This document shows positions 24,377-58,770 of a stretch of DNA of 64,000 nucleotides, piece by piece. The stretch spans positions 1,146,449 through 1,210,448 of the forward strand of contig CBDCMS010000004.1 of NCBI GenBank assembly GCA_965219005.1, given 5' to 3'. The position numbers were made by a program, and so were the translations under genes. Positions within the stretch are counted from its first letter, which is position 1. Each line of letters opens with the position of its first letter. Below the pieces are notes generated by a model. That model was not told where the DNA came from. It did no database searches and saw nothing but the letters and a program-made list of their open reading frames with translations. Source of the DNA: Acidobacteriota bacterium (GTDB lineage: Bacteria; Acidobacteriota; UBA6911; RPQK01; JAJDTT01).

Positions 24377-24640
24377 CACAAAACCTTTCTGGTTTCGCGA
24401 ATCCAGCTTCGGCAACTGATCGACCTTATTGCGAGGGCAACGTAGGTCTCAGCTTTGCGCCCCGAGGCTTTCGCACGGGTGGCCCTTTCGGCGTGGCTGC
24501 GAAGACTACGCTGTCAGCAAAAAGCTCTATTTGATGTTCTGAAAACTAACTTCCTCACAATGGGTCTTTTCGGACGGTTCGACCGAAAACTTTAGGGGCA
24601 GTTTCCAAAGTGCGATGCGGCTGGTTGGACCCCATTCGTA

Positions 24641-24718
24641 GGGGTGGCCTCCAGGCCGCCCATCTCGAGCCAAAGGCTCGAAGGAAGAAAAGACGGCGGC
24701 GCGGAGGCCACCGCCACG
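24641..24718. repeat. REP-like GC-rich hairpin repeat (GGTGGCCTCCAGGCCGCC ... GGCGGCGCGGAGGCCACCGCCACG)
   Basis: Related palindromes lie at 51790-51866 and 58691-58770. Confidence 0.6.
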
Positions 24719-24836
24719 TCCCTCGTCCGAGGTTTCTTTAATGAACGATCCGGCGCAGTCGGGGGCGTGGCTAACCAGGAACTCATTCCACCGTTCCTTA
24801 ATGGACGCGAGGTAGTCTGCCGATCCAGATTGCAAG

Positions 24837-25508
24837 ATGCATAGCGCAGAAAGTGAGATAGCGGATCCACTGCTCGAATGCTGTAGGAAGAAAGCCCCGG
24901 TGACGATTATGTCCACCATGGGGGTCTTCCAGGGTGAGTTTGTGGCTGTCTCTTCCGGTGACGTCCTTATTGATCTCTTCCAGGGCGAAGAGGAACAGAT
25001 CTGTCGCCCGCTGTCGAGATGCTGCGTTGTTTTCAGCCAACAGAATCAAAGCAAGGTTTTCCTGGCCACGGTGAAGGACTGTATCAAGCCGGAAGCCTCG
25101 GCTCGTCCGCTGGTGGTTTTGTCAAGGGTTTCAGACATAGCCACGGGGGAGAGCAGAGCAGCCTGGCGTGTGCCCCTTCGTCGTGACAATGAGTTGTCCG
25201 TTCGCGTTGTCGATGAGGACAAGAGAGTCTGGCACCCTGAAGCCGTGGACATCAGTTTAACGGGGATTCTGATCAGGTTTCACAAGGACGACGTTCCCGA
25301 CCTCGATGTAGGTGCCTGGGTCGCTCTGGAGTTACGGCTGAACCAACACGAGGTAAAGCTTCCAGCTGACATACGGCGTCGGGATGGACGACTGTACGGC
25401 CTCTTCTTCCCCTACGATTTACACGGGGGGGAGATTACTTCGTCCAACACGCTGCGCCAGGTCGTCAATGAGCTTGAGAGGCAGTGGCTTGGCCGGCATA
25501 TAAGGTGA
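24837..25508 (+). CDS. PilZ-domain c-di-GMP binding protein (YcgR-like, with an N-terminal PilZN-like region)
   Basis: RVPLRR (RxxxR) followed 25 aa later by DISLTG (DxSxxG). 223 aa as called, and the true start may be the Met at 24909. Confidence 0.6.
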   Translation: MHSAESEIADPLLECCRKKAPVTIMSTMGVFQGEFVAVSSGDVLIDLFQGEEEQICRPLSRCCVVFSQQNQSKVFLATVKDCIKPEASARPLVVLSRVSDIATGESRAAWRVPLRRDNELSVRVVDEDKRVWHPEAVDISLTGILIRFHKDDVPDLDVGAWVALELRLNQHEVKLPADIRRRDGRLYGLFFPYDLHGGEITSSNTLRQVVNELERQWLGRHIR

Positions 25509-26074
25509 CTTGTCCACGACCGGCGCTGGGCCTCAGGAAGCGAGCCTTCCAATTGATTCCGAACCTCGACAGAGCGCACCAGACCTCGCGCGCGGACCTT
25601 CCACCGATCCTGCCGGCTGACATTCTGTGCTTCTCAATCCAGACTCGGATGAGCTCTTGCCTCCCGGATCTCATCGATCCGACAAAAAACGCTTCTTTTA
25701 GTACCAGTTAACCACAGTTCGTGAGCTAAAGATCCACCCGGAAACATCCGATAAGTCGGAGGAGGCTAGGGGGAAATACTGCCCGGATGGAGAGGTGTGG
25801 GACGACTCAGACTACCTGAAACGGGCTCTGTTCGACCTATACCTACACTGAGGGTGGATGTGGATGATCGGCCTCCAAGCCTTCACTGCCGAAGGCTATC
25901 CGCAAACGAGCTGTGTGGCGGCTTGGCCGAAGTGTGGGAGCGAAACGCTTGATTGATCGACGCTCCAACAAGAAGCCAGTAGGTGTGACTGTGGCAATAC
26001 CCGTAGGTCGAAGCCCAGTACATCTCGAAAGTCAGTTCAGGCCAGGACCAGCACGCCACTCTCGGATCGACCCT

Positions 26075-29000
26075 ATGACCCTCGCAGCTCTTGGCAGATT
26101 AAAGATCCTACCGATTTTCTTTATGTTTGCCATTCTATGCTCGGCTCCCGCCGCTGCTGCGACCTTGAATTCCGTCCAGTCCGGCACCACCACCATAACG
26201 GGGGGCTCAAAGACCGTCACGATCACCTCCGTCGATACCAGCAAGGCATTCCTCGTCTTTTCCACCCGCCAAAACGAGGAAGAACCCGATGAAGTGCAGA
26301 TCTCGGGGCAGATCACGAACGCAACGACTCTTACTTTCGACCGGGCTGCCGACGAAAAAACTATCAATGTCACCTGGTATGTAGCCGAGTTCACGAGCGG
26401 GGTCTCGGTCCAGCGCGGTCGGGACACCGTCTCCTCAAGTACTGTCAATGTCAGCCTCACCAGCGTAGATACTTCGAAAAGCTTTGCTCTAATTTCGCTC
26501 GAGTCGGCGGTCAATGACAACAGCTATAGCGCCGATAATTTTGTCAGGGCCAAGATCACGAGCAGCACCAACCTCCAATTGCAGGCCGTCACTCCAAACG
26601 CCAGTCTTGCCGTCGAGTGGCAGGTGGTGGAGTTCACGGATTCTAGTGTTCAAACCGGAGATGTCGAGTTTCAAACAGGGGATTCCTCAAAGACCTACAC
26701 CCTCACCGGTGTGGACACGACTAAATCCTGGTTGATCTACACCTACAAGAGTCAAGATGGGACCAGTACCGACATCGGCCAGAAAATGGTCCGCGGTCAG
26801 ATTACGAATGCTACGACCCTCACCTTTGACCGCGACAACACTGGCCAGACCATAGATCTGTCGTGGTTTCTTGTCGAATTCACCGATGGAACCATTGTCC
26901 AGCACAATTCGGAACCCTTCTCCACCAGCGAAACACAGAATGACGTGACGATTACCGCAATCGATACCAGCCGTGCGATTGCGGTGGGCGGTAACTTCCT
27001 CAAAGGTGGAAAGACTCCCAATACGACTTTGGGGGATCCCAGCCCTGCTTGGTTCACTTTGGATTTGACCAGTACCACGAACTTGCGGATGACGCGTGGA
27101 GCCACTCAAACTTCCACCGCAGACGTGGGCTGGTTTGTCATCGATTTCTTGGGTGATGTCCCGGGGTCTACGGTTACCGAGAGTGGCGGTTATACACAAG
27201 TTGACGAGTCTGGGACTACCGATACTTTCACGGTGGTGTTGGATGTACAGCCGGCTACCGACGTAGTGCTCCTGGTCTCGAGCGGCGATACCGGCGAGGC
27301 GACGGTGGACAAGTCCTCTCTGACCTTCACCAACGCCAATTGGACCACGGCCCAGACCGTGACCGTTACGGGCGTCGACGATGTCCCGCAAGACGGGCAT
27401 CAAAACTTCAACGTGACATTGAGCGTCGACGATGCCAACTCGGACGATGCCTATGACCCGGTGGCCGATCAAACTGTCAGCGTCTGGACCACCGACGACG
27501 ACCTGGGACCCGTCCAGCTGAATTCCGTCCAGTCCGGCACCACCACCCTGACGGGGACCTCGCAGACTGCCGCGATCACCTCTGTCGATACCAGCAAGGC
27601 CTTTCTCGTCTTTGGGGTCAACGTCAACGAGAATGAACCAACAAAGGCTCAGATCTCGGGGCAAATCACGAATTCGACGACCCTGACATTTGCACGAATC
27701 GCTACCGGAAATACTGTCACGATCACCTGGCAGGTCGTCGAGTTTGCCAGCGGAGTATCCGTACAGCGGGGCGCCGCCGATATCTCGGGAACCGGGTATC
27801 CGGCCAACGCCACTCTGGTGGCGGTTAACATTGCCAAGAGCTTCCCAATCATCAGCCATCGAACCGACGGCAGCTCGTTCGACGCCAATGATTTCTGGAA
27901 GGCGAAGATCACCTCCCCCACGAATCTAGAGATGGATGCCGACAACGATCCAGATGTGGGCTTTATCGAATGGCAAGTGGTCGAGTATTCCGACGCCAGT
28001 GTCCAGCAGGGAGACCTATCCTTTGCCTCGGGAGACGCCTCGAAAACCGACACCGTAACCAGTGTGGATACTTCCAAGTCCTGGCTCATCTACAGCTACG
28101 ATACGCTAACTGGCACGATCGCGGACATTGGTCAGAAGCTGATCCGTGGGCGCCTGACCAATTCCACGACTCTCACCTTCGACCGGAACAACACGGGAGT
28201 CACTGCTGACCTTTCCTGGTATCTGGTCGAGTTCTCCGACTTAACGACAACCCAGCACGGCTCCCAGAGTTTCACTACCGGCGAGACCCAGAAGAACGTC
28301 ACCATCAGCAGCGTGGAGACGGCGGAATCCATCGCGGCAGGTGGCTACTATGCCCGGGGAGGCAGGTCCTCCTACAGCGGAGACGACAATCCCGGTGTAG
28401 GCTGGTTTACGTTAGATCTCACCAGCTCGACCAACCTCCAGATCGACCGGGAGCTCACGGGGTCGGCCACTGCCGACCTGGGCTGGTTTGTGGTCGAGTT
28501 CAACCAGGCGTCCTTCACGGTGACCGAGTCGGGTGGCTCCACGTCGGTCGCCGAGCCGGGGACTACAGATACGTTCACGGTTGTCCTCGACGAGAAACCA
28601 AACTCCAACGTGGTCTTCAACGTGAGCAGCGGAGACACCGGTGAGGCGACGGTCAATGTCAGTTCGCTGACGTTCACGACGGCCAACTGGAGCACGGCGC
28701 AGACCGTAACGGTTACGGGAGTCGATGACGACATCATCGATGGGAACCAGAATACGACCCTGACCATCAGCGTGGACGATGCCAACTCGGATGACTACTT
28801 CGATCCCCTGGCCGACCAGACCGTGAGTGCGACGACGACCGATGATGATGTGGCCGGCTTCACGGTAGTCGAGTCAGGCGGCTCCACGACGGTGGCGGAG
28901 TCCGGAACGACGGACACCTTCACGGCGGTGCTGGATGCCGAACCCGATTCCAACGTCGTGATCACGGTCGCGAGCGCGGACACGGGAGAGGCGACGGTCA

Positions 29001-32000
29001 ACGTCTCCTCGCTCACGTTTACACCGGCTAACTGGGACACGGCGCAAACGGTCACGGTCACGGGAGTCGACGACGACCTGGACGACGGGAACCAGAACAC
29101 GCTGATCACGATGAGCATCGATGATGCCAACTCCGACGACAACTTCGACCCGTTGTCAGATCAGACCGTGAGCACCACCACGGTGGACGATGACGTCTCC
29201 GGATTCACTCTAGTGGAGTCCTCAGGCTCGACCTCGGTGAATGAATCGGGAACGACCGATACGTTCACGGCGGTACTAGATGCGGAGCCCACCTCCAATG
29301 TGGTGATCCTGGTGAGCAGCGCCGACACCGGGGAAGCAACGGTCGATCTCTCCTTGCTGACCTTCACGCCCGCCAACTGGGATACGGCACAGACGGTGAC
29401 GGTCACGGGTGTAGACGATGACCTGGACGACGGCGACCAGAATACCCTGATCACACTTTCGATCGACGACATCAACTCCGATGACACCTTCGATCCCTTA
29501 CCCGATCAGACGGTGAGCGCAACCACGGTGGACGATGACGTCTCCGGCTTCACGATAGTCGAGTCGGGTGGATCGACTTCGGTGAATGAATCGGGCACCA
29601 CCGATACCTTCACGGCTGTGTTGGACGCGGAGCCCATCTCCAATGTGGTGATCCTGGTGAGTAGCGCCGACACCGGGGAAGCGACGGTCGACGTCTCGTT
29701 GCTGACCTTTACGCCCGCCAACTGGGATACGGCACAGACAGTCACGGTCACGGGTGTAGACGATGACCTGGATGACGGCGACCAGAACACGCTGATCACG
29801 CTTTCGATCGACGACATCAACTCCGATGACACGTTCGATCCGTTGGCCGACCAGACCGTCAGCGCCACGACGGTGGACGATGATGCCTCCGGCTTCACGA
29901 TCGTGGAGTCCTCAGGATCGACCTCGGTGAATGAATCGGGCACGACGGATACCTTCACGGCAGTGCTGGACGCGGAGCCGACTTCTAATGTCGTGATCCT
30001 GGTGAGCAGCGCCGACACGGGAGAAGCAACGGTCGATGTCTCCCTGCTGACCTTCACACCAGCCAACTGGGATACGGCGCAGACGGTGACGGTCACGGGC
30101 GTAGACGACGACCTGGACGATGGGGACCAGAACACCCTGATCACACTTTCGATCGATGACATCAACTCCGATGACACCTTCGATCCCCTGGCCGATCAGA
30201 CGGTCAGCGCTACCACAGTAGACGATGATGCCTCGGGCTTCACGATCGTCGAGTCGGGCGGCACCTCGGTGAATGAATCCGGCACCACCGACACGTTCAC
30301 GGCGGTGCTCGACGCCGAGCCGACCTCCAATGTTGTGATCCTGGTGAGTAGCGCGGACACCGGGGAAGCGACGGTCGACGTCTCGTTGCTGACCTTTACG
30401 CCAGCCAACTGGGATACCGCACAGACGGTCACAGTCACGGGAGTGGACGATGACCTGGACGACGGCGACCAGAATACCCTGATCACACTTTCGATAGACG
30501 ACATCAACTCCGACGATACCTTCGATCCCCTGGCCGATCAGACGGTGAGCGCTACCACGGTGGACGATGACGCCTCCGGCTTCACGATCGTGGAGTCGGG
30601 TGGGACTTCGGTGAATGAATCGGGCACCACCGATACCTTCACGGCAGTGCTCGACGCGGAGCCGACCTCCAATGTGGTGATCCTGGTCAGCAGCGCCGAC
30701 ACGGGAGAAGCGACGGTTGACGTCTCGTTGCTGACCTTCACGCCAGCGAACTGGGATACCGCGCAGACGGTCACGGTTACAGGAGTAGACGATGACCTGG
30801 ACGACGGCGACCAGAATACCCTGATCACACTTTCGATCGACGACATCAACTCCGATGACACGTTCGATCCCTTACCCGATCAGACGGTGAGCGCAACCAC
30901 GGTGGACGATGACGCCTCCGGCTTCACGATCGTGGAGTCGGGTGGGACTTCGGTGAATGAATCGGGCACCACCGATACCTTCACGGCGGTGTTGGACGCC
31001 GAGCCCACCTCCAATGTGGTGATCCTGGTGAGCAGTGCCGACACTGGGGAAGCCACGGTCGATGTTTCGCTGCTGACGTTTACGCCCGCCAACTGGGATA
31101 CGGCACAGACGGTCACCGTCACGGGAGTGGACGATGACCTGGACGACGGCGACCAAAACACCCTGATCACGCTGAGTATCGATGACGCGAACTCGGATGA
31201 CACCTTCGATCCCTTGGCCGACCAGACCGTGAGTGCGACCACGGTGGACGATGACGCCTCGGGCTTCACGATCGTCGAGTCGGGCGGCACCTCGGTGAAT
31301 GAATCGGGCACCACCGATACCTTCACGGCGGTGTTAGACGCCGAGCCCACCTCCAATGTGGTGATCCTGGTGAGCAGTGCCGACACCGGGGAAGCGACGG
31401 TCGACGCCTCGTTGCTGACCTTCACGCCAGGCAACTGGGATACCGCACAGACGGTCACGGTCACCGGAGTAGACGATGACCTGGACGACGGCGACCAGAA
31501 CACCCTGATCACACTTTCGATAGACGACATCAACTCCGATGACACCTTCGATCCCTTACCCGATCAGACCGTCAGCGCCACGACGGTCGACGATGACGCT
31601 TCGGGCTTCACGATCGTCGAGTCAGGCGGCACCTCGGTCAACGAATCGGGCACCACCGACACGTTCACGGCGGTGTTGGACGCGGAGCCCACCTCCAATG
31701 TGGTGATCCTGGTGAGCAGCGCCGATACCGGAGAAGCAACGGTCGATGTCTCCTTGCTGACCTTTACGCCCGCCAACTGGGATACCGCGCAGACGGTCAC
31801 GGTCACCGGAGTAGACGATGACCTGGACGACGGCGACCAGAACACCCTGATCACACTTTCGATAGACGACATCAACTCCGATGACACCTTCGATCCCTTA
31901 CCCGATCAGACCGTCAGCGCCACGACGGTCGACGATGACGCTTCGGGCTTCACGATCGTCGAGTCAGGCGGCACCTCGGTCAACGAATCGGGCACCACCG

Positions 32001-35000
32001 ACACGTTCACGGCGGTGTTGGACGCGGAGCCCACCTCCAATGTGGTGATCCTGGTGAGCAGCGCCGACACTGGGGAAGCCACGGTCGATGTTTCGCTGCT
32101 GACGTTTACGCCCGCCAACTGGGATACGGCACAGACGGTCACCGTCACGGGTGTCGACGATGATCTCGATGATGGCGACCAGAACACGCTGATCACTCTT
32201 TCGATCGACGACATCAACTCCGATGACACCTTCGATCCCTTACCCGATCAGACGGTCAGCGCTACCACGGTGGACGATGACGCTTCCGGATTCACGATCG
32301 TTGAATCAAGTGGATCGACCTCGGTGAATGAATCGGGCACCACCGATACCTTCACGGCGGTGTTAGACGCGGAGCCCACCTCCAATGTTGTGATCCTGGT
32401 AAGCAGCGCCGACACCGGGGAAGCGACGGTCGATGTCTCGTTACTGACCTTCACGCCAGCGAACTGGGATACGGCGCAGACGGTCACGGTCACCGGAGTA
32501 GACGATGACCTGGACGACGGAGACCAAAACACCCTGATCACGCTGAGTATCGATGACGCGAACTCGGATGACACCTTCGATCCCTTGGCCGACCAGACGG
32601 TCAATGCCACCACGGTGGACAATGACGCCTCGGGATTCACGATCGTGGAGTCGGGTGGGACTTCGGTAAATGAATCGGGCACCACCGATACCTTCACGGC
32701 GGTGCTGGACGCGGAGCCGATCTCCAATGTCGTGATCCTGGTCAGCAGCGCGGACACCGGGGAAGCGACGGTAAACGTCTCTTCGCTGACGTTTACGCCG
32801 GCCAACTGGGATACCGCACAGACAGTGACGGTCACGGGAGTAGACGACGACCTGGACGACGGAGACCAAAACACCCTGATCACGCTGAGTATCGATGACG
32901 CGAACTCGGATGACACCTTCGATCCCTTACCCGATCAGACGGTCAATGCCACCACGGTGGACGATGACGCCTCGGGATTCACGATCGTGGAGTCGGGTGG
33001 GACTTCGGTAAATGAATCCGGAACGACGGATATCTTCACGGCGGTACTGACGGCGGAGCCCACCTCCAATGTGGTGATCCTGGTCAGCAGCGCGGACACC
33101 GGGGAAGCGACGGTAAACGTCTCTTCGCTGACGTTTACGCCGGCCAACTGGGATACCGCACAGACAGTGACGGTCACGGGAGTAGACGATGACCTGGACG
33201 ATGGCGACCAGAACACGCTAATCACTCTTTCGATAGACGACATCAACTCCGATGACACCTTCGATCCCCTGGCCGATCAGACGGTGAGCGCAACCACGGT
33301 GGATGATGATGCTTCCGGCTTCACGATCGTGGAGTCCTCAGGATCGACCTCGGTGAATGAATCGGGCACGACGGATACCTTCACGGCGGTGTTGGACGCC
33401 GAGCCGACCTCCAATGTGGTGATCCTGGTGAGTAGCGCCGACACCGGGGAAGCGACGGTCGACGCCTCCCTGCTGACGTTTACGCCCGCCAACTGGGATA
33501 CGGCACAGACGGTCACGGTCACGGGTATCGATGACGACCTGGATGACGGAGACCAGAACACACTGATTACGCTTTCGATTGATGACATTAACTCCGACGA
33601 TACCTTCGACCCCCTACCCGATCAGACCGTGAGCGCCACGACGGTGGACGATGACGCCTCTGGTTTCACGATCGTGGAGTCGGGCGGCACCTCGGTGAAT
33701 GAATCCGGTACGACCGATACGTTCACGGCGGTGCTGGACGCGGAGCCGACCTCCAATGTCGTGATCCTGGTGAGCAGCGCCGATACCGGAGAAGCGACGG
33801 TCGACGTCTCCCTGCTGACGTTTACGCCCGCCAACTGGGATACCGGACAGACGGTCACGGTTACAGGAGTCGACGACGACCTGGATGACGGCGACCAGAA
33901 CACCCTGATCACACTTTCGATAGACGACATCAACTCCGATGACACGTTCGATCCCTTACCCGATCAGACGGTCAGCGCTACCACGGTGGACGATGACGCC
34001 TCCGGCTTCACGATCGTGGAGTCGGGTGGGACTTCGGTAAATGAATCGGGCACCACCGATACCTTCACGGCGGTGCTGGACGCGGAGCCGACCTCCAATG
34101 TGGTGATCCTGGTCAGCAGTGCCGACACGGGAGAAGCGACGGTTGACGTCTCGTTGCTGACCTTCACGACCGCCAACTGGGATACCGCGCAGACGGTCAC
34201 GGTCACGGGTGTGGACGACGACCTCGACGACGGGGATCAGAATACGCTGATCACGCTTTCGATAGACGATGCCAACTCCGACGATACGTTCGATCCCCTG
34301 GCCGATCAGACGGTGAGCGCCACCACGGTGGACGATGACGCCTCCGGATTCACGATCGTGGAATCTGGTGGGTCGACTTCAGTAGATGAATCCGGGACTA
34401 CGGATACGTTCACGGCGGTGTTGGACGCCGAGCCGACCTTCAATGTGGTGATCCTGGTGAGTAGCGCCGACACCGGGGAAGCGACGGTAAACGTCTCTTC
34501 GCTGACGTTTACGCCCGCCAACTGGGATACCGCACAGACGGTCACGGTCACGGGAGTAGACGATGACCTGGACGACGGCGACCAGAACACCCTGATCACA
34601 CTTTCGATCGATGACATCAACTCCGATGACACGTTCGATCCCTTACCCGATCAGACCGTCAGCGCTACCACGGTGGACGATGATGCCTCCGGCTTCACGA
34701 TCGTGGAGTCCTCAGGATCGACCTCGGTGAATGAATCAGGTACGACGGATACGTTCTCGGCGGTGCTCGATGCGGAGCCCACCTCCAATGTGGTGATCCT
34801 GGTCAGCAGCGCCGACACGGGAGAAGCGACGGTTGACGTCTCGTTGCTGACCTTCACGCCCGCCAACTGGGATACCGCACAGACGGTCACGGTTACTGGA
34901 GTAGACGATGACCTGGACGATGGTGACCAGAATACCCTGATCACCTTGAGTATCGATGACGCGAACTCGGATGACACCTTCGACCCCTTGGCCGACCAGA

Positions 35001-35638
35001 CCGTCAGCGCCACGACGGTCGACGATGACGCTTCGGGCTTCACGATAGTCGAGTCGGGTGGGACTTCGGTGAATGAATCGGGCACCACCGATACCTTCAC
35101 GGCAGTGCTGGACGCGGAGCCGACTTCCAATGTCGTGATCCTGGTGAGCAGCGCCGATACGGGAGAAGCGACGGTCGACGTCTCGTTGCTGACCTTCACG
35201 CCAGCCAACTGGGACACGGCGCAGACGGTGACGGTCACGGGTATCGATGACGACCTGGATGACGGAGACCAGAACACACTGATTACGCTTTCGATTGATG
35301 ATATTAACTCCGACGATAGTTTCGATCCCTTGCCCGATCAGACGGTCAGTGCCACGACGGTGGACGATGACGCTTCCGGTTTCACAATCGTGGAGTCCTC
35401 AGGTTCGACGTCGGTGAATGAATCGGGCACGACGGATAACTTCACGGCAGTTTTGACGGTGGAGCCCACCTCCAATGTGGTGATCCTGGTGAGCAGCGCC
35501 GACACCGGGGAAGCGACGGTCGACGTCTCCCTGCTGACGTTTACGCCCGCCAACTGGGATACGGCGCAGACGGTCACGGTCACGGGTGTAGACGATGACC
35601 TGGACGACGGCGACCAGAATACCCTGATCACACTTTAG
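26075..35638 (+). CDS. Giant secreted repeat protein (adhesin-like), N-terminal segment. It ends at an in-frame TAG (35636-35638) that interrupts an otherwise continuous ~7,350-codon frame
   Basis: Signal peptide MTLAALGRLKILPIFFMFAILCSAPAAAA. Two ~450-aa N-terminal duplicated modules are followed by 114-aa tandem repeats starting near 28.5 kb, carrying acidic DDDLDDGDQ and DDxNSDD motifs. The ORF starts at 25913, and I picked the Met at 26075 as the likely start. Confidence 0.85.
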   Translation: MTLAALGRLKILPIFFMFAILCSAPAAAATLNSVQSGTTTITGGSKTVTITSVDTSKAFLVFSTRQNEEEPDEVQISGQITNATTLTFDRAADEKTINVTWYVAEFTSGVSVQRGRDTVSSSTVNVSLTSVDTSKSFALISLESAVNDNSYSADNFVRAKITSSTNLQLQAVTPNASLAVEWQVVEFTDSSVQTGDVEFQTGDSSKTYTLTGVDTTKSWLIYTYKSQDGTSTDIGQKMVRGQITNATTLTFDRDNTGQTIDLSWFLVEFTDGTIVQHNSEPFSTSETQNDVTITAIDTSRAIAVGGNFLKGGKTPNTTLGDPSPAWFTLDLTSTTNLRMTRGATQTSTADVGWFVIDFLGDVPGSTVTESGGYTQVDESGTTDTFTVVLDVQPATDVVLLVSSGDTGEATVDKSSLTFTNANWTTAQTVTVTGVDDVPQDGHQNFNVTLSVDDANSDDAYDPVADQTVSVWTTDDDLGPVQLNSVQSGTTTLTGTSQTAAITSVDTSKAFLVFGVNVNENEPTKAQISGQITNSTTLTFARIATGNTVTITWQVVEFASGVSVQRGAADISGTGYPANATLVAVNIAKSFPIISHRTDGSSFDANDFWKAKITSPTNLEMDADNDPDVGFIEWQVVEYSDASVQQGDLSFASGDASKTDTVTSVDTSKSWLIYSYDTLTGTIADIGQKLIRGRLTNSTTLTFDRNNTGVTADLSWYLVEFSDLTTTQHGSQSFTTGETQKNVTISSVETAESIAAGGYYARGGRSSYSGDDNPGVGWFTLDLTSSTNLQIDRELTGSATADLGWFVVEFNQASFTVTESGGSTSVAEPGTTDTFTVVLDEKPNSNVVFNVSSGDTGEATVNVSSLTFTTANWSTAQTVTVTGVDDDIIDGNQNTTLTISVDDANSDDYFDPLADQTVSATTTDDDVAGFTVVESGGSTTVAESGTTDTFTAVLDAEPDSNVVITVASADTGEATVNVSSLTFTPANWDTAQTVTVTGVDDDLDDGNQNTLITMSIDDANSDDNFDPLSDQTVSTTTVDDDVSGFTLVESSGSTSVNESGTTDTFTAVLDAEPTSNVVILVSSADTGEATVDLSLLTFTPANWDTAQTVTVTGVDDDLDDGDQNTLITLSIDDINSDDTFDPLPDQTVSATTVDDDVSGFTIVESGGSTSVNESGTTDTFTAVLDAEPISNVVILVSSADTGEATVDVSLLTFTPANWDTAQTVTVTGVDDDLDDGDQNTLITLSIDDINSDDTFDPLADQTVSATTVDDDASGFTIVESSGSTSVNESGTTDTFTAVLDAEPTSNVVILVSSADTGEATVDVSLLTFTPANWDTAQTVTVTGVDDDLDDGDQNTLITLSIDDINSDDTFDPLADQTVSATTVDDDASGFTIVESGGTSVNESGTTDTFTAVLDAEPTSNVVILVSSADTGEATVDVSLLTFTPANWDTAQTVTVTGVDDDLDDGDQNTLITLSIDDINSDDTFDPLADQTVSATTVDDDASGFTIVESGGTSVNESGTTDTFTAVLDAEPTSNVVILVSSADTGEATVDVSLLTFTPANWDTAQTVTVTGVDDDLDDGDQNTLITLSIDDINSDDTFDPLPDQTVSATTVDDDASGFTIVESGGTSVNESGTTDTFTAVLDAEPTSNVVILVSSADTGEATVDVSLLTFTPANWDTAQTVTVTGVDDDLDDGDQNTLITLSIDDANSDDTFDPLADQTVSATTVDDDASGFTIVESGGTSVNESGTTDTFTAVLDAEPTSNVVILVSSADTGEATVDASLLTFTPGNWDTAQTVTVTGVDDDLDDGDQNTLITLSIDDINSDDTFDPLPDQTVSATTVDDDASGFTIVESGGTSVNESGTTDTFTAVLDAEPTSNVVILVSSADTGEATVDVSLLTFTPANWDTAQTVTVTGVDDDLDDGDQNTLITLSIDDINSDDTFDPLPDQTVSATTVDDDASGFTIVESGGTSVNESGTTDTFTAVLDAEPTSNVVILVSSADTGEATVDVSLLTFTPANWDTAQTVTVTGVDDDLDDGDQNTLITLSIDDINSDDTFDPLPDQTVSATTVDDDASGFTIVESSGSTSVNESGTTDTFTAVLDAEPTSNVVILVSSADTGEATVDVSLLTFTPANWDTAQTVTVTGVDDDLDDGDQNTLITLSIDDANSDDTFDPLADQTVNATTVDNDASGFTIVESGGTSVNESGTTDTFTAVLDAEPISNVVILVSSADTGEATVNVSSLTFTPANWDTAQTVTVTGVDDDLDDGDQNTLITLSIDDANSDDTFDPLPDQTVNATTVDDDASGFTIVESGGTSVNESGTTDIFTAVLTAEPTSNVVILVSSADTGEATVNVSSLTFTPANWDTAQTVTVTGVDDDLDDGDQNTLITLSIDDINSDDTFDPLADQTVSATTVDDDASGFTIVESSGSTSVNESGTTDTFTAVLDAEPTSNVVILVSSADTGEATVDASLLTFTPANWDTAQTVTVTGIDDDLDDGDQNTLITLSIDDINSDDTFDPLPDQTVSATTVDDDASGFTIVESGGTSVNESGTTDTFTAVLDAEPTSNVVILVSSADTGEATVDVSLLTFTPANWDTGQTVTVTGVDDDLDDGDQNTLITLSIDDINSDDTFDPLPDQTVSATTVDDDASGFTIVESGGTSVNESGTTDTFTAVLDAEPTSNVVILVSSADTGEATVDVSLLTFTTANWDTAQTVTVTGVDDDLDDGDQNTLITLSIDDANSDDTFDPLADQTVSATTVDDDASGFTIVESGGSTSVDESGTTDTFTAVLDAEPTFNVVILVSSADTGEATVNVSSLTFTPANWDTAQTVTVTGVDDDLDDGDQNTLITLSIDDINSDDTFDPLPDQTVSATTVDDDASGFTIVESSGSTSVNESGTTDTFSAVLDAEPTSNVVILVSSADTGEATVDVSLLTFTPANWDTAQTVTVTGVDDDLDDGDQNTLITLSIDDANSDDTFDPLADQTVSATTVDDDASGFTIVESGGTSVNESGTTDTFTAVLDAEPTSNVVILVSSADTGEATVDVSLLTFTPANWDTAQTVTVTGIDDDLDDGDQNTLITLSIDDINSDDSFDPLPDQTVSATTVDDDASGFTIVESSGSTSVNESGTTDNFTAVLTVEPTSNVVILVSSADTGEATVDVSLLTFTPANWDTAQTVTVTGVDDDLDDGDQNTLITL

Positions 35639-38600
35639 ATCGACGACATCAACTCCGATGATACGTTCGATCCCTTACCCGATCAGACGGTCAGCGCTAC
35701 CACGGTGGACGATGACGCCTCGGGATTCACAGTGGTGGAATCGAGTGGATCGACGTCGGTAGATGAATCGGGGACGACCGATACCGTCACGGTGGTACTG
35801 GATGCAGAGCCCGCCTCCAACGTGGTGATTACGACAACGAGTGGAGATACCGGCGAAGCGACCGTGGGTGTGTCCTCGTTGACCTTCACCCCGGCCAACT
35901 GGAATACCGCACAGCCGGTGACGGTCACGGGGGTGGACGACGACCTGGACGACGGCGACCAGAGCACGCTGATCACCCTGAGTATCGACGATGCCAACTC
36001 CGATGACAGCTTCGATCCCTTGGCTGATCAGACGGTCAACGCCACTACGGTGGATGATGACGCCTCCGGATTTACGATCGTGGAGTCGGGTGGATCGACT
36101 TCGGTGAATGAATCCGGCACGACGGATACCTTCACAGCGGTACTAACAGCGGAGCCAGCCACGAATGTTGTGATCCTGGTCAGCAGCGCTGACAGCGGCG
36201 AAGCGACCGTGAACGTGTCCTCGCTGACCTTTACGTCCGCCAATTGGAATACCGCGCAGACGGTCACAGTGACGGGAGTGGACGACGACCTGGACGACGG
36301 CGACCAGAGCACGCTGATCACCCTGAGTATCGATGATGCCAACTCCGATGACAGTTTTGATCCCTTGGCCGATCAGACGGTGAGTGCCACCACGGTGGAC
36401 GATGACGCCTCGGGATTCACCGTGGTGGAGTCCAGCGGGTCGACGTCGGTGAATGAGTCCGGCACGACGGATAGCTTTACAGTTGTCCTGACAGCAGAGC
36501 CAAGTTCCAACGTCGTGATTCTGGTGAGCAGCGCCGACACCGGTGAAGCGACGGTCGATCTCTCCCTCCTGACCTTCACCCCAGTCAACTGGGACACAGC
36601 GCAAGCGGTAACCGTTACGGGTGTGGACGACGACCTGGATGACGGCGACCAGAGTACGCTGATCACGCTTTCGATAGACGACGCCAACTCGGATGACACC
36701 TTCGATCCGTTGTCAGATCAGACGGTCAACGCCACTACGGTGGACGATGACGCCTCGGGATTCACAGTGGTGGAATCGAGCGGATCGACCTCGGTGAATG
36801 AATCGGGCACGACGGATAGCTTTACAGTTGTCCTGACAGCAGAGCCAAGTTCCAACGTCGTGATTCTGGTGAGCAGTGCCGATACCGGCGAAGCGACCGT
36901 GGGTGTGTCCTCGTTGACTTTCACGCCGGCCAACTGGAATACCGCACAGCCGGTGACGGTCACGGGAGTGGACGACGACCTGGACGACGGCGACCAGAGT
37001 ACGCTGATCACGCTTTCGATAGACGACGCCAACTCGGATGACACCTTCGATCCGTTGTCAGATCAGACGGTGAGTGCCACTACGGTGGACGATGACGCCT
37101 CGGGATTCACAGTGGTGGAGTCCAGCGGGTCGACGTCGGTGAATGAATCCGGCACGACGGATACCTTCACAGCGGTGCTAACAGCGGAGCCAGCCACGAA
37201 TGTAGTGATCCTGGTGAGCAGTGCCGATACCGGCGAAGCGACCGTGGGTGTGTCCTCGTTGACCTTCACCCCGGCCAACTGGAATACCGCACAGCCGGTG
37301 ACGGTCACGGGAGTGGACGACGACCTGGACGACGGCGACCAGAGCACGCTGATCACGCTGTCGATAGACGACGCCAACTCCGACGATTCCTTCGATCCGT
37401 TGTCAGATCAGACGGTCAACGCCACTACGGTGGACGATGACGCCTCGGGATTCACAGTGGTGGAATCGAGTGGATCGACCTCGGTGAATGAATCGGGTAC
37501 GACGGATAGCTTTACAGTTGTCCTGACAGCAGAGCCAAGTTCCAACGTCGTGATTCTGGTGAGCAGTGCCGATACCGGCGAAGCGACCGTGGGTGTGTCC
37601 TCGTTGACCTTCACCCCGGCCAACTGGAATACCGCACAGACGGTCACGGTCACCGGAGTAGACGATGACCTGGACGATGGCGACCAGAACACCCTGATCA
37701 CACTTTCGATCGACGACATCAACTCCGATGACACGTTCGATCCCTTGGCCGATCAGACGGTGAGTGCCACCACGGTGGACGATGACGCCTCGGGATTCAC
37801 GGTGGTGGAATCCAGCGGATCGACCTCGGTGAATGAAGCGGGCACGACGGATAGCTTTACAGTTGTCCTGACAGCAGAGCCAAGTTCCAACGTCGTGATT
37901 CTGGTGAGCAGTGCCGATACCGGCGAAGCGACCGTGGGTGTGTCCTCGTTGACCTTCACGCCGGCCAACTGGAATACCGCACAGCCGGTGACGGTCACGG
38001 GAGTGGACGACGACCTGGACGACGGCGACCAGAGTACGCTGATCACGCTTTCGATAGACGAGGCCAACTCCGACGATTCCTTCGATCCGTTGTCAGATCA
38101 GACGGTGAGTGTGACCACGGTGGACGATGATGTTGGCGGCTTCACGGTCGTGGAATCCAGCGGATCGACCTCAGTGGATGAATCGGGTACGACGGATACC
38201 TTCAGCGTGGTGCTGGCGGCGGAGCCAGCCTCGAACGTCGTGATCATGGTCGGCAGTGCAGATACGGGCGAAGCCACCGTGGACCAGGCGACGTTGACGT
38301 TCGTGCCGGGGAGCTGGAACACGCCTCAGGTGGTGACGGTGACCGGCGTCGATGATGATCTGGTCGACGGCGATCAGACTACGCTCGTCACGCTGTCAAT
38401 CGACGACGCCAACTCGGATGACACTTTTGATCCCTTGGCCGATCAGACGGTGAGTGTGACCACCACCGATGATGATGCGGCCGGCTTCACGGTGGTGGAG
38501 GCGGCGGGATCGACGTCGGTAAGCGAGTCGGGCACGACGGACACGTTCACAGTAGTTCTCACGGCAGAGCCTGCCTCCAACGTCGTGATCCTGGTCAGCA

Positions 38601-41600
38601 GTGCAGATACGGGCGAAGCCACCGTGGACCAAGCGACGCTGACGTTCGCACCGGGGACCTGGAACACGCCTCAAGTGGTGACGGTGACCGGTGTTGATGA
38701 TGATCTTGTTGACGGCGACCAGAGTACGCTCGTCACGCTGTCAATCGACGACGCCAACTCGGATGACACTTTTGATCCCTTGGCCGATCAGACGGTGAGT
38801 GTGACCACCACCGATGATGATGCGGCCGGCTTCACGGTGGTGGAGGCGGCGGGATCGACGTCGGTAAGCGAGTCGGGCACGACGGACACGTTCACAGTAG
38901 TTCTCACGGCAGAGCCTGCCTCCAACGTCGTGATCCTGGTCAGCAGTGCAGATACGGGCGAAGCCACCGTGGACCAAGCGACGCTGACGTTCGCACCGGG
39001 GAATTGGAACACGCCTCAGTTGGTGACGGTGACGGGAGTAGACGACGATTTGGTCGATGGCGACCAGAGTACGCTCGTCACGCTGAGCGTCGATGACGCC
39101 AACTCCGATGACACCTTCGATCCGCTGGCCGACCAGACGGTGAGTGTGACCACGACGGATGACGATGCGGCGGGCTTCACTGTGTTGGAGACGGCGGGAT
39201 CGACGTCGGTAAGCGAGTCGGGCACGACGGACACCCTTACAGTAGTTCTCACGGCAGAGCCTGCCTCCAACGTGGTGATCACGGTCGGCAGTGCCGATAC
39301 GGGCGAAGCCACGGTGGACCAAGCGACGCTGACGTTCGCACCGGGGACCTGGAACACGCCTCAGGTGGTGACGGTGACCGGCGTTGATGATGATCTGGTC
39401 GACGGCGACCAGAGTACGCTAATCACGCTGAACGTCGATGACGCCAACTCCGATGACAGCTTCGATCCCTTGGCTGACCAGACGGTCAATGCGACGACGA
39501 CGGATGATGACGCAGCCGGCTTTACAGTGGCGGAGACAGGCGGATCGACGTCGGTCAGCGAGTCGGGTACCACGGACACCTTTACAGTGGTCCTGACGGC
39601 AGAGCCGGCCTCTAGCGTGGTGATTCTGGTCAGCAGTGCCGATACGGGTGAGGTCACCGTGGACCAAGCGGCGTTGACATTTGCGCCGGGCAACTGGAGC
39701 ACGCCTCAGGTGGTGACGGTGACCGGTGTCGATGATGATCTCGTTGATGGCGATCAGACTACGCTCGTCACGCTGAGTGTTGATGACGCCACCTCGGATG
39801 ACACATTCGATCCCCTGGCTGACCAGACGGTGAGTGTGACCACCACCGATGATGATGCGGCCGGCTTCACGGTGTTGGAGACGGCGGGATCGACGTCGGT
39901 AAGCGAGTCGGGAACGACGGACACGTTCACAGTAGTTCTCACGGCAGAGCCTGCCTCTAACGTGGTGATCACGGTGGGCAGTGCCGATACGGGCGAAGCC
40001 ACGGTGGATCAGGCGGCGCTGACATTTGCGCCGGGCAACTGGAGCACGCCTCAGGTGGTGGCGGTGACCGGTGTCGATGATGATCTGGTCGACGGCGATC
40101 AGACTACGCTCGTCACGCTGAGCGTTGATGATGCCACCTCGGATGACACATTCGATCCCCTGGCTGACCAGACGGTGAGTGTCACGACCACGGACGATGA
40201 TGCGGCGGGCTTTACGGTGCTGGAGACGGGCGGATCGACTTCGGTGAGCGAGACAGGAACGACGGACACCTTCACAGTGGTGTTGACGGCGGAGCCGGCG
40301 TCCAGTGTCGTGATTCTGGTCAGCAGCGCCGATACGGGTGAGGCCACGGTGGATCAGTCAGCGGTGACGTTCACGCCGGCCAACTGGAATGCTCCACAGA
40401 TACTGACGGTCACCGGCATCGACGATGATCTGGTCGACGGCGACCAGAGGACGCTCGTCACCCTGAGCGTCGATGACGCCAATTCCGATGACGACTTCGA
40501 TCCTCTGGCCGACCAGACGGTGAGTGTGACTACGACGGACGATGACGCAGCCGGATTCACGGTAGGCGAGACGGGCGGATCGACTTCGGTGAGCGAAACA
40601 GGAACGACGGACACCTTCACAGTGGTGTTGACGGCGGAGCCGGCGTCCAACGTGGTGATCCTGGTCAGCAGCGCCGATACGGGTGAGGCCACGGTGGATC
40701 AGTCAGTCCTGACGTTCACGCCGGCCAACTGGAATGCTCCACAGATACTGACAGTGACCGGCATCGACGATGATCTGGTCGACGGCGACCAGACTACGCT
40801 CGTCACCCTGAGCGTCGATGACGCCAACTCGGATGACAGTTTTGATCCACTGGCTGATCAGACGGTGAGCGCGACCACGACGGATGACGATGCGGCCGGC
40901 TTCACCGTGTTGGAGACGGCGGGATCGACGTCGGTAAGCGAGTCGGGAACGACGGACACGTTCACAGTAGTTCTCACGGCAGAGCCTGCCTCCAACGTGG
41001 TGATCACGGTCGGCAGTGCAGATACGGGCGAAGCCACCGTGGACCAAGCGACGCTGACGTTCGCACCGGGGAACTGGAACACGCCTCAGGTGGTGACGGT
41101 GACCGGCGTCGACGATGATCTCGTCGACGGCGACCAGACCACGCTCGTCACACAGTCTATTGATGACGCCAACTCGGATGACGCCTTCGATCCCCTGGCC
41201 GACCAGACAGTCAGTGCGACCACCACGGATGATGACGCGGCCGGTTTCACGGTGTTGGAGACGGCGGGATCGACGTCGGTAAGCGAGTCGGGAACGACGG
41301 ACACGTTCACAGTAGTTCTCACGGCAGAGCCTGCCTCCAACGTGGTGATTCTGGTCAGCAGTGCCGATACGGGTGAGGCCACGGTGGATCAGTCAGCGGT
41401 GACGTTCACGGCGGCCAACTGGAATGCACCACAGATACTGACGGTCACCGGCATCGACGATGATCTGGTCGACGGCGACCAGAGTACGCTCGTCACCCTG
41501 AGCGTCGATGACGCCAATTCCGATGACACCTTCGATCCCCTGGCTAACCAGACGGTGAATGTGACCATCACCGATGATGATGCGGCCGGCTTTACGGTGG

Positions 41601-44600
41601 CAGAGACAGATGGATCGACGTCGATCAGCGAGACGGGAACGACGGATACCTTCAGTGTAGCCCTCGCAGCTGAGCCAGTCTCCAACGTGGTGGTCCTGGT
41701 CGTCAGTGCCGATACAGGTGAGGCCACGGTGGATCAGGCGGCGCTGACGTTCACGCCGGCGAACTGGAATGCTCCACAGATGCTGACAGTGACGGGCGTC
41801 GATGATGATCTTGTCGACGGCGACCAGAGTACGCTCTTCACGCTGTCGATCGACGACACCAACTCGGATGACGCCTTCGATCCGGTAGCGGACCAGTCGG
41901 TGACGGTCACCACGACCGATGATGACGCGGCTGGCTTTGCGGTCGTAGAGACGTCGGGCTCGACCTCAGTGAACGAGTCGGGCACCACGGACACCTTCAG
42001 TGTAGCCCTGGCCGCAGAGCCGACTTCCAACGTAGTGATCCTCCTCAGCAGCGCCGATACGGGCGAAGCCACGGTGGGTCAGGCGACGCTGACCTTCACG
42101 CCGGCAAGCTGGAACGTCGCCCAGATCGTCACCGTCACCGGCGTAGACGACCAAATCGTCGATGGAGATCAGAATAGCAGCATCTCCCTCAGCATTGACG
42201 ATGCAAGCTCCGCCGACAGTTTTGACTCACTGCCTGATCAGACGGTCTCGGTCTCGACGGTCGATGACGACAACGCCGGCTTTAGCGTAGTCGAGTCAGG
42301 GGGCTCAAGCGAAGTGGACGAGTCCGGAAAGAAGGACAGCTTCACGGTCCAGCTCACCAGACAGCCGCTTTCGGATGTAGTGATCTCAGTGACCAGCGGA
42401 GATACCAGCGAAGTCACCGCCAGCCCCGCCAGCCTGACCTTCGGCCTCGGCAACTGGCAGGTCCCCCAACAAGTCCAGCTGACCGGAGTAAACGACCAGG
42501 TTGCCGACCAGGACAAGACGGTCCAGATTGCGCTGAGTGTTCTCGACGCCAGCTCCGACGACGCCTGGGATGATCTTTCCGACCAAACGGTCTCGGTGAA
42601 GAATGTGAACGACGATCCAGCCGGCTTCATCGTTACCCAGAGCAACGGATCCACCCGCGTGGACGAGTCCAAGACTACCGATAAGGTGACGGTGGCTCTC
42701 AAGAATGAGCCGAGCTCGAACGTGGTGGTGGTGGTAAGCACTTCTGATCCGGGAGAAGCGGAAATCAATCCGGGCTTCCTGACCTTCACTCCTGCCACCT
42801 GGGACATCCCTCAGGAGATCGTCGTAACTGGCGTTGACGACGATCTCCTGGATGGAAGTCAGAGCTCGGTTGTGACCCTGAAGATCGATGATGCCAACTC
42901 GGACGATGCCTTCGATTCCCTGCCTGACCAAAGCATCAACGTTACGGTTACCGACGACGACGAAGCCGGTTTTATTGTCACCGAGAACGGGGGCTCCACC
43001 GAGGTGGAGGAGTCCGGGAGCACCGATACGTTTACCGTGGTTCTGCGGGTTGAGCCTGGGTCTGACGTGGTGGTGGCAATCGAGAGCGAAGACGTCACGG
43101 AAGTCCGAGTCAGTCCAACTTCCCTGACATTCACGCCCGCCAACTGGAACGTGACGCAGCGGGTCAACCTTGTCGGCGTCGATGACACTCTGGCTGACGG
43201 AGACAAAGACACCTCGATCTACGTGAAGGTGGACGGCTCCAGCTCGGATAATGCATTCGCCGGCGTGCCCGACCAGAGCGTCACCGTGACCACAATCGAC
43301 GACGACCCTGCCGGTTTTCGGGTGGAGGAGTCCGAGGGCTTTACCGAGGCAGCTGAATCCGGCGTAACTGACACCTTCTCAGTCGTGTTGGAGGCGCAGC
43401 CGGAGTCGGATGTCGTCCTGAGCGTCACGAGTGCGGACAGTTCCGAAGTGACCGTAAACAGGGATTCCCTGGTCTTCACGACCGAGAATTGGAACGTCCC
43501 ACAGCAGGTCACGGTGAGCGCTGTTGATGACGACCTGATCGACGGCTCGAAAAGCGTTTGGGTGACGGTCGGCGTGAACATCGACTCCTCGGCCGATCCC
43601 TTCGACGCCTTGCCCGATCAAAGGCTCCAGGTGTCGTCCCGAGACAATGACGCCGCCGGCTTCTCGGTCAGCGAAAGCGAGGGATCGACCCAGACCAAGG
43701 AATCGGAAGACCCTGACAGCTTTACCGTGGTTCTCAACGCCAGGCCCGAGTCGAACGTGGCTATCAAGATCGCACACAGCGATCAGTCGGAACTTGCGGT
43801 GATTCCAAATGTCCTGACCTTTACGCCAGACAACTGGTCTGTCCCCCAACAGGTGAATGTGCAAGCCGTGAACGACGATTGGATCGACGGCGATAAGACC
43901 CATCAGCTGACCCTCAGCGTGGACGAGCTACTCTCGGCCAGCAGCTTCCACGCTGCCGCGGATCAAGTGCTCGAAGTGACCGTCCTCGACAATGATCTGC
44001 CTGGTTTCACGACACGCGAATCGAACGGCTCCACTCAGGTCGATGAATCGGGCAGCACCGATCCCACGGAGACTAGCGTGAGCCCGACAGTCCTGAGCTA
44101 CGGACGCAGCAACTGGACAGAGGCACAGGTGGTGACCGTGACCGGGGTAGACGACGAGGAAGCCGATGGGATCCGGACGAGTAACGTGCTCTTCAGCATT
44201 GATGATGCCAGATCCCATCCTGCCTTCCATCATCTCTCGGACAAAGCCATCCAGGTGGCGACGACTGATGATGATACGGCAGGCTTCACCGTAACCGAGT
44301 CCGGCGACGGCACCCGAGTAGAAGAATCCAATGGGACCGATGTGCTGACCGTCGTCCTGAACCGGGAGCCTGGCGGCCGGGTGTTGCTTCGAGTAAGCAG
44401 CTCTGATCTAACCGAAGTTGTTGTCAATCTGCCTTTCCTCACCTTTACGCCGGCCAACTGGTCTCAGGCGCAGTCCGTTACCGTGATTGGAGTCGACGAC
44501 GATGTGGTAGACGGGGACAAAACGACGCTCCTGAGTATCGCTGTCGATGATGCTCTCTCGGACGATCTTTTTGATCCACTGCCGGCCCAGACGGTCCAGG

Positions 44601-44620
44601 TGACGACCCTGGATGATGAC
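28490..44620 (+). repeat. Tandem array of about 47 copies of a 342-bp (114-aa) repeat inside the giant gene. There are at least 4 subfamily blocks (about 28.5-35.7, 35.7-38.1, 38.1-42.0 and 42.0-44.6 kb)
   Basis: Strict 342-bp periodicity is shown by the period-342 antisense stop-free ORFs and repeated peptide units. Adjacent copies in the first block are more than 95% identical at the nucleotide level. Confidence 0.9.
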
Positions 44621-51788: not shown

Positions 51789-51789
51789 C

Positions 51790-51866
51790 TTTGGCCTCCA
51801 GGCCGAAGTTTTTTCTTCTTTCGAGCCTGTGGCTCAAGGAACGGCGGCCTGGAGACCACCGCTACG
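51790..51866. repeat. REP-like GC-rich hairpin repeat between convergent genes
   Basis: GGCCTCCAGGCCG ... CGGCGGCCTGGAGACCACCGCTACG. Same family as 24641-24718 and 58691-58770. Confidence 0.6.
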
Positions 51867-53913: not shown

Positions 53914-54019
53914 GAGTCCTTTCCTGTTCTTCTTCTTCGGGAAGAAATACTATCCGGAATCTGGGACAATCATCGAGGGCGAAGAGATAACCTGCTGGAT
54001 AAAGCAACCAAGAGGCCTT

Positions 54020-58651: not shown

Positions 58652-58690
58652 GGCGATGTTTCCGTGTGGATGAAATTTTCAGCCGAGGGT

Positions 58691-58770
58691 CGTGGCGGTG
58701 GTCTCCAGGCCGCCGTTTTCTTCGTTCGAGACTTTGGTCGACGCACGGCGGCCTGGAGACCACCGCCACG
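58691..58770. repeat. REP-like GC-rich hairpin with perfect 25-bp arms (CGTGGCGGTGGTCTCCAGGCCGCCG / CGGCGGCCTGGAGACCACCGCCACG)
   Basis: A perfect inverted repeat separated by a ~30-nt loop, sitting between convergent genes. Confidence 0.7.

Follow-up and report, generated by a model that had tools for sequence, protein, structure and literature searches.

The 64,000-nucleotide (nt) stretch of an Acidobacteriota bacterium genome analyzed here (assembly GCA_965219005.1, contig CBDCMS010000004.1; hereafter, the window) carries a giant gene in which 48 repeat units follow one another in tandem. We consider it likely that this array forms the extender of a single giant fibrillar protein that is exported via Sec and either stays on the surface or is secreted. 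The units of its largest block are near-identical as protein but not as DNA, and the protein uniformity is due mainly to purifying selection on every unit. A first-pass annotation of the same DNA had read the array as a case of concerted evolution with a probably unstable copy number. We find instead that it is a fairly stable and unexceptional representative of a known kind, neither freshly homogenized nor unstable.

Tandem Repeats Finder detected a single dominant and very strong array (28622-42112, period 345, 39.2 copies, 84% matches, score 12,019), whose range ends at 42112 because the copies beyond it are too divergent. Parsing the units from the translation on the linker motif DDDxxGF yielded 47 units from position 28841, and one more lies directly upstream (28487-28849), giving 48 tandem units at 28487-44968 (u0 to u47) and, with the isolated unit at 27140-27502, a total of 49 copies. 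The interval 28490-44620, for which about 47 repeats had been announced, does hold 47 units, and the full series extends to 44968. The unit had been described as 342 bp long, but 345 bp is the prevailing period, with 35 of the 47 parsed units; just 11 units, all of them in block A, measure 342 bp, and one truncated unit measures 279 bp. An all-against-all identity matrix (47 x 47) clearly separated four blocks, A to D, in line with the four or more blocks proposed earlier, block D being the divergent 3′ one (Table 1). The peptides taken as diagnostic of the first three (DAEPTSN/DVSLL, TAEPSSN/GVSSL, and TAEPASN/DQATL) and the acidic clusters are likewise present in the translation. On the minus strand, antisense open reading frames (ORFs) of 208 to 223 amino acids (aa) recur in the array (29506-30177, 30880-31545, 32248-32916, and 34651-35277), probably as a side effect of the repetition combined with GC-rich codon usage.

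Nucleotide identity between neighboring units from u2 to u38 ranged from 76 to 94%, with a mean of 86%; it reached 90% in nine of the 36 pairs and 95% in none. Within blocks A to C, identities of 76 to 96% were found, with block means of 84 to 87%. The block figures for identity and for the proportions of synonymous (pS) and nonsynonymous (pN) differences were obtained from the last 300 nt of every unit. In block A, a nucleotide identity of 87.4% (81 to 94%) went with a protein identity of 96.3%, a pS of 0.42 and a pN of 0.025 (pN/pS, 0.06). The corresponding values were 85.5%, 89.9%, 0.38, and 0.064 in block B (pN/pS, 0.17) and 83.6%, 85.6%, 0.41, and 0.078 in block C (pN/pS, 0.19). Neighboring units of block A were 92 to 100% identical in protein, and u9 and u10, whose protein sequences are identical, are separated by 25 synonymous and no nonsynonymous differences. 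Random placement of the nucleotide differences of block A would lead to an expected protein identity of only 74%. Its 127 variable sites include 94 at third codon positions, and 101 of the 127 are parsimony informative. The earlier statement that adjacent units are almost identical over 342 bp thus describes the protein of block A well, but not its DNA.

A pS far above pN combined with a near-identical protein is the pattern of polyubiquitin genes, and block A displays it. The near-identity of nucleotides, synonymous sites included, that characterizes a DNA-homogenized array was not found in blocks A to C, where pS is 0.38 to 0.42. Homogenization by recombination copies synonymous and nonsynonymous sites alike and hence cannot yield such a pattern. 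Large synonymous divergence (pS of about 0.4) with a uniform protein argues that uniformity results mainly from purifying selection rather than from ongoing homogenization of the DNA. Polyubiquitin is the textbook case of repeat-protein uniformity through purifying selection; Nei, Rogozin, and Piontkivska reportedly ascribed it in 2000 to this cause and not to DNA homogenization. The likeness extends to the tandem units, the (almost) identical protein and the many synonymous differences. In contrast, polyubiquitin is cleaved to monomers and ranks among the most constrained proteins, whereas the window units stay in one chain of a surface protein, and the window array shows clear gene-conversion mosaics in addition.

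These mosaics are most readily seen in block A, where u9 equals u10 in its first third, u7 equals u10 in the middle, u8 equals u9 in the last third, and u7, u11, u12, and u18 have one 3′ haplotype in common. In Sawyer-type permutations of the polymorphic sites, z was 15, 26, and 23 for blocks A, B, and C, respectively, with none of 500 permutations reaching the observed value, and 11 to 32% of biallelic site pairs failed the four-gamete test. Against a background divergence of about 13%, two exact tracts of 278 bp at an offset of one unit (Table 1) and about ten further exact tracts of 85 to 116 bp at offsets of one to four units were found; these tracts are recent conversions or decayed duplications. 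The mosaic of synonymous variants shows that gene conversion has taken place in patches, and conversion tracts and mosaicism, the marks of exchange in concerted arrays, are both present. Identity within block A does not depend on the spacing of the units, remaining at 0.87 from lag 1 through lag 16, and no higher-order, multiunit repeat was found in that block. In this respect, block A resembles a well-mixed pool rather than a chain of fresh neighbor duplications.

Related genes provided an external reference. A second contig of the same sample (L010) encodes a protein whose C-terminal 1,000 aa are 74% identical to those of the window gene. Its 3′ units pair one-to-one with u39, u40, u44, u46, and u47 at 68 to 76% identity, far above other pairings, that of u47 resting on position and on shared Calx-beta-like motifs. 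A u41/u43 hybrid unit in L010 accounts for an in-register difference of two units, L010 having two fewer than the window. In the 93-aa unit u45 of the window, the 5′ portion of one L010 unit is joined to the 3′ portion of the following one, so that about 137 aa are deleted out of register. These two differences map to L010 7564-7911 and 7912-8946. Such gains and losses of units imply that copy number changes over evolutionary time. An IS240-family transposase gene (L010 4426-5121) truncates the L010 array on its 5′ side, and the L010 gene contains frame breaks. Block A units are 96% identical in protein among themselves but at most 86% identical to any L010 unit, and the 5′ units of this insertion sequence (IS)-truncated array are 77 to 83% identical to each other and 77 to 86% to window units. 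Judging from these comparisons, the edge of the array, with its one-to-one orthologous units, appears to evolve vertically, and the center appears to have expanded within the lineage.

A Vicinamibacterales chromosome (OZ252293.1; L002 10001-21182) carries a homolog of the giant gene that shares its double-head architecture. Its extender differs, consisting of a 101-aa (303-bp) repeat in which neighbors share 94 to 97% of protein and 86 to 93% of DNA positions. With a pS of 0.22 to 0.35 and a pN of 0.01 to 0.06, this repeat has the same pattern of high protein and lower DNA identity as the window array. The nearest relative by neighboring genes (L011) is about 85% identical in nucleotides and syntenic over window positions 4.6 to 24.4 kb. 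Synteny ends at a PilZ gene (window 24413-25543), which is inverted in L011 (1013-2032) and followed there by an unrelated GFO_IDH_MocA gene; the giant gene is absent from the L011 locus in the syntenic region compared. The break at the inverted PilZ gene suggests that the giant-gene region is lineage specific or was rearranged at this locus.

The number of units had also been regarded as uncertain on the grounds of a short-read assembly. This concern appears weak, as the longest exact repeat within the array is 278 bp and nonunique 101-mers and 151-mers cover 5 and 3% of its positions, respectively. In addition, an independent contig (L009; ENA ERZ25072670 ctg255031_4x_l, 174 kb) is 99.88% identical to window 38565-60425 and contains the same last 18 units. 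Two substitutions and a 1-bp insertion near 38590 are all that separates its array from that of the window, and the differences between the two contigs as a whole include small indels resembling low-coverage errors. By their names and sizes, the related contigs suggest long-read assemblies. A 4.24-Mb related contig carries an identical neighboring MacB-type gene; searches for exact copies of the ORF1 product (starting at the ATG at 26075), the PilZ protein, and P0391 (100% MacB match) returned no match in another assembly. With synonymous sites about 40% diverged, the array was probably not recently homogenized, and the copy number in the assembly is probably credible.

The array lies in a stop-to-stop frame of the plus strand (25913 to 47968) that one in-frame TAG splits into two listed ORFs, 25913-35638 and 35705-47968, and the ATG at 26075 is the probable start of the gene (Table 1). 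Ahead of the array are two all-beta N-modules, each placed before a Calx-beta-like unit. Family scans of the N-module found no Pfam or NCBIfam family above the cutoff, and structure comparison found no close solved fold. Its homologs, 52 to 59% identical, occur in metagenome-assembled genomes (MAGs) of Gammaproteobacteria, Vicinamibacterales, and Thermoplasmata, the best (59%) being from a gammaproteobacterial MAG. Scans of the C-terminal 1,118 aa detected DUF11-type families (E = 1e-77) and a choice-of-anchor U domain only, with no repeats-in-toxin (RTX) sequences. The GC content is uniform, about 0.59, across the giant gene and its flanks, and a compositional signal of horizontal transfer was rejected for this reason.

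Table 1. Features of the giant gene and its repeat array (window coordinates)
Feature	Position	Strand	Remarks
Giant coding frame, single	26075-47968	+	7,297 codons from ATG at 26075; one in-frame TAG break
Sec-type signal peptide, predicted	26075-26161	+	MTLAALGRLKILPIFFMFAILCSAPAAAA; read directly from the sequence
N-module copy 1	26165-27139	+	325 aa, all-beta, 4 internal sub-repeats
Isolated Calx-beta-like unit	27140-27502	+	After N-module 1
N-module copy 2	27548-28486	+	55% identity with copy 1
Entry units u0, u1	28487-29185	+	75-77% nt identity to block A
Block A, u2-u20	29186-35707	+	DAEPTSN/DVSLL type; 342- and 345-bp units; aa 96%, nt 87%
Exact tract, 278 bp	31448-31725 = 31790-32067 (span 31448-32067)	+	One-unit offset
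In-frame TAG, unit 20	35636-35638	+	ITL*IDD; all other units Ser (ITLSIDD); TCG -> TAG
Block B, u21-u27	35708-38122	+	TAEPSSN/GVSSL type; aa 90%, nt 85.5%
Block C, u28-u38	38123-41917	+	TAEPASN/DQATL type; aa 86%, nt 84%
Second exact tract, 278 bp	38380-38657 = 38725-39002 (span 38380-39002)	+	One-unit offset
Block D, u39-u47	41918-44968	+	Divergent, 30-55% aa between neighbors; one-to-one with L010 units
Truncated unit u45	43988-44266	+	93 aa; out-of-register deletion of ~137 aa vs L010
Three DUF11 (PF01345/TIGR01451) domains and choice-of-anchor U domain (about 45950-46243)	44978-46650	+	Outer coordinates approximate
C-terminal region	46651-47965	+	~440 aa, without assigned family; 74% identical to related L010 gene

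The in-frame TAG, a single C to A substitution in unit 20, raises the question of whether the gene is a decaying pseudogene, truncated after this unit and with the rest of the array unexpressed. Such decay would fit with the truncation of u45, with the IS-cut L010 copy and its frame breaks, and with the absence of the giant gene from beside its neighbors in L011. Reassignment of TAG was rejected, because this codon is the normal stop of seven other genes of the window. Nevertheless, we regard decay as unlikely. The 12.3 kb past the TAG are still open in frame and consist of units with the same low pN/pS, indicating that inactivation, if any, must have happened very recently. Such a one-base change could also stem from an assembly or sequencing error or from a minority allele, and the L009 twin does show small indels of the kind expected from low coverage. 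The TAG may thus reflect inactivation in the very recent past, an allele carried by a minority, or an error of assembly.

The second alternative is classical concerted evolution, in which ongoing unequal recombination would keep the units alike, and the copy number would be unstable and perhaps misassembled. That exchange has taken place is clear from the mosaic sharing of variants, the four-gamete incompatibilities, the two 278-bp tracts together with several of 86 to 116 bp, and the unit gains and losses that separate the window and L010 genes; the contrast between 96% protein identity inside block A and at most 86% to L010 units also agrees with it. This part of the first-pass interpretation therefore stands. 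Ongoing homogenization does not, since it would also have wiped out the synonymous differences, and blocks A to C retain them in large number (nucleotide identity of 76 to 94%, pS of 0.38 to 0.42, pN/pS of 0.06 to 0.19). Moreover, block A units are no more alike when adjacent, unique 101-mers cover 95% of positions, and the 3′ 18 units are equal in number in L009. We thus consider it quite improbable that recombination is what keeps the units alike, and purifying selection remains our explanation for their uniformity.

The high pS next to a near-identical protein, found again in the unrelated repeat type of the homologous Vicinamibacterales gene, could also be taken to mean that selection favors synonymous recoding so that the units stop recombining, the divergence of the DNA being adaptive. 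However, the differences are clustered, and identical tracts are longer than in permutations. Shared 31-mers still cover 33% of positions and exact tracts extend to 278 bp, which leaves substrate for recombination, and purifying selection together with time gives the same numbers. Adaptive recoding therefore seems very unlikely.

As to the nature of the unit, AlphaFold2 modeling of unit 6, with the 48 units as the alignment, predicted a nine-strand beta-sandwich with a mean predicted local distance difference test score (pLDDT) of 96.2 and a predicted template modeling score (pTM) of 0.86. The predicted fold superposes on solved Calx-beta domains. In a search of the unit profile against all PDB sequences, the first match was CBD12, comprising the calcium-binding domains (CBDs) of NCX1 (E = 0.0027), and only NCX1 CBDs were matched besides two marginal, unrelated sequences. 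The GVDDDLDDGD segment of the unit aligns with IIDDDIFEED of CBD1 (3US9), placing D76-D78 on D446-D448 and D81 on E451, and the interunit linker DDDAAGFTVVE aligns with the CBD1-CBD2 junction DDDHAGIFTFE, its DDD falling on D498-D500. These CBD1 residues are ligands of Ca3 and Ca4, and Ca2+ rigidifies the CBD1-CBD2 junction (PMC3386913). The acidic columns aligned with the ligands are kept in at least 90% of the 48 units, divergent ones included, so that the Ca2+-ligand motifs of Calx-beta domains, in the distal loops and the C-terminal DDD, are present in sequence.

Pfam Calx-beta (PF03160) matched 29 of the 48 units at a whole-protein E value of at most 1, the best being 1.2e-4. Unit 6 scored 14.9 bits over model positions 1 to 118 of 119, and all units remained below the 27-bit gathering score. 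A three-unit stretch had no Pfam match at an E value of at most 0.01, and an NCBIfam scan of the unit found no family above the cutoff. A family matched over its full length but below threshold, with nothing in NCBIfam, points to a divergent Calx-beta-like domain that curated models miss. As modeled, then, the unit is a divergent Calx-beta-like domain that is closest to NCX1 CBD1 and is not a cadherin. Of the folds suggested in the first-pass annotation, the beta-sandwich of Calx-beta type was borne out and the cadherin and bacterial Ig (Big) assignments were rejected on fold and profile searches: the generic Greek-key beta-sandwich and the linker DDDxxGF, which we take to resemble the cadherin DxNDN linker, would suit cadherin-like or Big domains, but these are hardly to be expected when no cadherin appears in the structure and profile match lists, the PDB profile matches are NCX1 CBDs bar the two marginal ones, and Calx-beta alone among Pfam families is matched by a majority of the units, across the whole length of its model.

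The window units differ from the NCX1/CALX CBD1-CBD2 pair (3US9, 3GIN, 2DPK) in several respects. Common to both are a beta-sandwich of about 115 aa, the DDD of the E-F loop, and the C-terminal DDD. In contrast, the window units are only 16 to 23% identical to the NCX1 domains and carry an additional conserved acidic cluster, DDxNSDDxFD, and an invariant Trp. Furthermore, the NCX1 domains form a cytosolic pair, whereas the window protein, with its 48 tandem copies, is predicted to be extracellular.

These features suggest how the protein might work. Behind a signal peptide, which points to export via the Sec route, two all-beta heads of 325 aa would be followed by the 48 tandem units of 114 to 115 aa, the three DUF11 domains with the choice-of-anchor U domain, and the C-terminal region. 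Ca2+ would be bound at each unit junction by the two DDD motifs and further acidic residues, making the chain of 48 units a long, stiff rod that would hold the head and tail modules away from the cell. A role as a Ca2+-binding extender of adhesin type is thus plausible from the sequence. Such a rod mechanism has been established for the extenders of other giant adhesins and proposed for BapP (PMC12153261). The array would have grown through duplication of units and been shuffled later by patchy gene conversion or unequal exchange, and strong purifying selection would keep the units near-identical as protein.

Several points weigh against this picture. The TAG and the truncated u45 might mean that the gene is no longer intact. 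No sorting signal was recognized in the C-terminal region, and no dedicated secretion genes, including those of a type I secretion system (T1SS), were found in the window. L009 reaches back only to 38565, so that the independent check of copy number covers only the 3′ 18 units, downstream of blocks A and B. Finally, Ca2+ binding, rod formation, adhesion, and the export route are predictions.

Arrays of this general kind are known from giant RTX adhesins. Like MpIBP/MpAFP region II, LapA, and SiiE, the window protein contains dozens of near-identical beta-sandwich repeats, here 48 in a long array with the acidic linker DDDxxGF, as in the extenders of giant adhesins. Such extenders are thought to project binding modules from the cell, with Ca2+ in their linkers (PMC7493085, PMC4083281, PMC5550230), and this Ca2+ stiffens them (PMC7493085). 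However, the window protein has a Sec-type signal peptide and belongs to another beta-sandwich family, and neither C-terminal RTX repeats nor a T1SS signal nor nearby T1SS genes were found. About 13% of nucleotides vary from one unit to another, whereas the MpAFP RII repeats are described as identical. Another parallel is BapP of Pseudoalteromonas tunicata, which combines a Sec signal, a head, and tandem repeats of Calx-beta and BIg type with predicted linker Ca2+ sites and is experimentally required for biofilm formation (PMC12153261). A Sec signal peptide, N-terminal head, and tandem beta-sandwich repeats are predicted for the window protein as well. BapP has 12 repeats and a beta-propeller head, in contrast to the 49 units, different head, and DUF11/choice-of-anchor tail of the window protein.

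A profile search of 1.84 billion representative proteins showed how common the unit is, with 27,573 proteins matched at an E value of at most 1e-3, 18,276 at 1e-10, and 7,485 at 1e-30. Many of the unit-bearing proteins are 2,000 to 7,900 aa long with 10 to 68 copies. The top match, P0241, comprises 7,219 aa with 59 near-identical units and an autotransporter-like C terminus. Giants of this type share the domain family and its long near-identical arrays, but their head and anchor modules differ, and they are not orthologous to the window gene. A word-based search detected units 60 to 72% identical in marine Acidimicrobiia, Planctomycetota, and other proteins. With the domain in more than 27,000 representative proteins, the gene adds one giant fibrillar surface protein to a large and already recognized class. 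The unit subfamily is very common yet falls below Pfam and NCBIfam thresholds, and a dedicated model would improve the annotation of many environmental genomes.

More generally, synonymous sites should be checked before DNA homogenization or an assembly risk is deduced from near-identical protein repeats. A general trend for repeats to diverge fast from one another after duplication has been reported (PMC5120217). The pattern of the array runs against this trend, which makes such arrays useful for studying constraint on extender domains. The point most worth following is the unusually strong constraint on the protein across so many copies. At 96 to 100% protein identity over about 20 to 38 copies and some 40% synonymous divergence, one may speculate, with little expectation of being right, that the whole unit surface is functionally constrained, for instance by rods that pack next to each other or join homophilically in register to form a Ca2+-dependent sheath or matrix, or that synonymous recoding has been selected against RecA-mediated collapse of giant arrays. 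If true, surface constraint or antirecombination recoding would amount to a design principle that applies to giant repeat proteins of bacteria in general and is no peculiarity of this gene.

The neighbors of the giant gene in the window encode a PilZ protein, an S8 peptidase, an OMP_b-brl_4 outer membrane protein, a glycosyltransferase, and an ATP-binding cassette (ABC) system of MacB/FtsX type, the only ABC system reported in the window. The MacB-type protein, by which the organism is assigned to Acidobacteriota, has relatives at 90, 85, and 82% identity, followed by Blastocatellia and Pyrinomonadaceae at 53 to 56%. The S8 peptidase gene (22484-24415, minus strand) ends in about 13 tandem SILWSD hexapeptides encoded by an 18-bp repeat (22527-22752), a stretch that had no nucleotide match in syntenic L011.

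An intergenic element of about 90 nt (51778-51866) forms a long hairpin (-46.5 kcal/mol) and has partial copies at 24636-24691 and 58689-58766 in the window; it also recurs in the related genome L011 (13482-13568). The copy at 24.6 kb sits at the L011 synteny break and the PilZ inversion. The element is possibly of a repetitive extragenic palindrome (REP) or miniature inverted-repeat transposable element (MITE) type. Most of the differences between L009 and the window are concentrated in one 560-bp cluster (window 53374-53930, L009 14811-15376) with 11 substitutions and several small insertions. This cluster, located in and just beyond the 5′ end of an FG-GAP repeat gene (52633-53913, minus strand), marks a local concentration either of strain variation or of assembly error.

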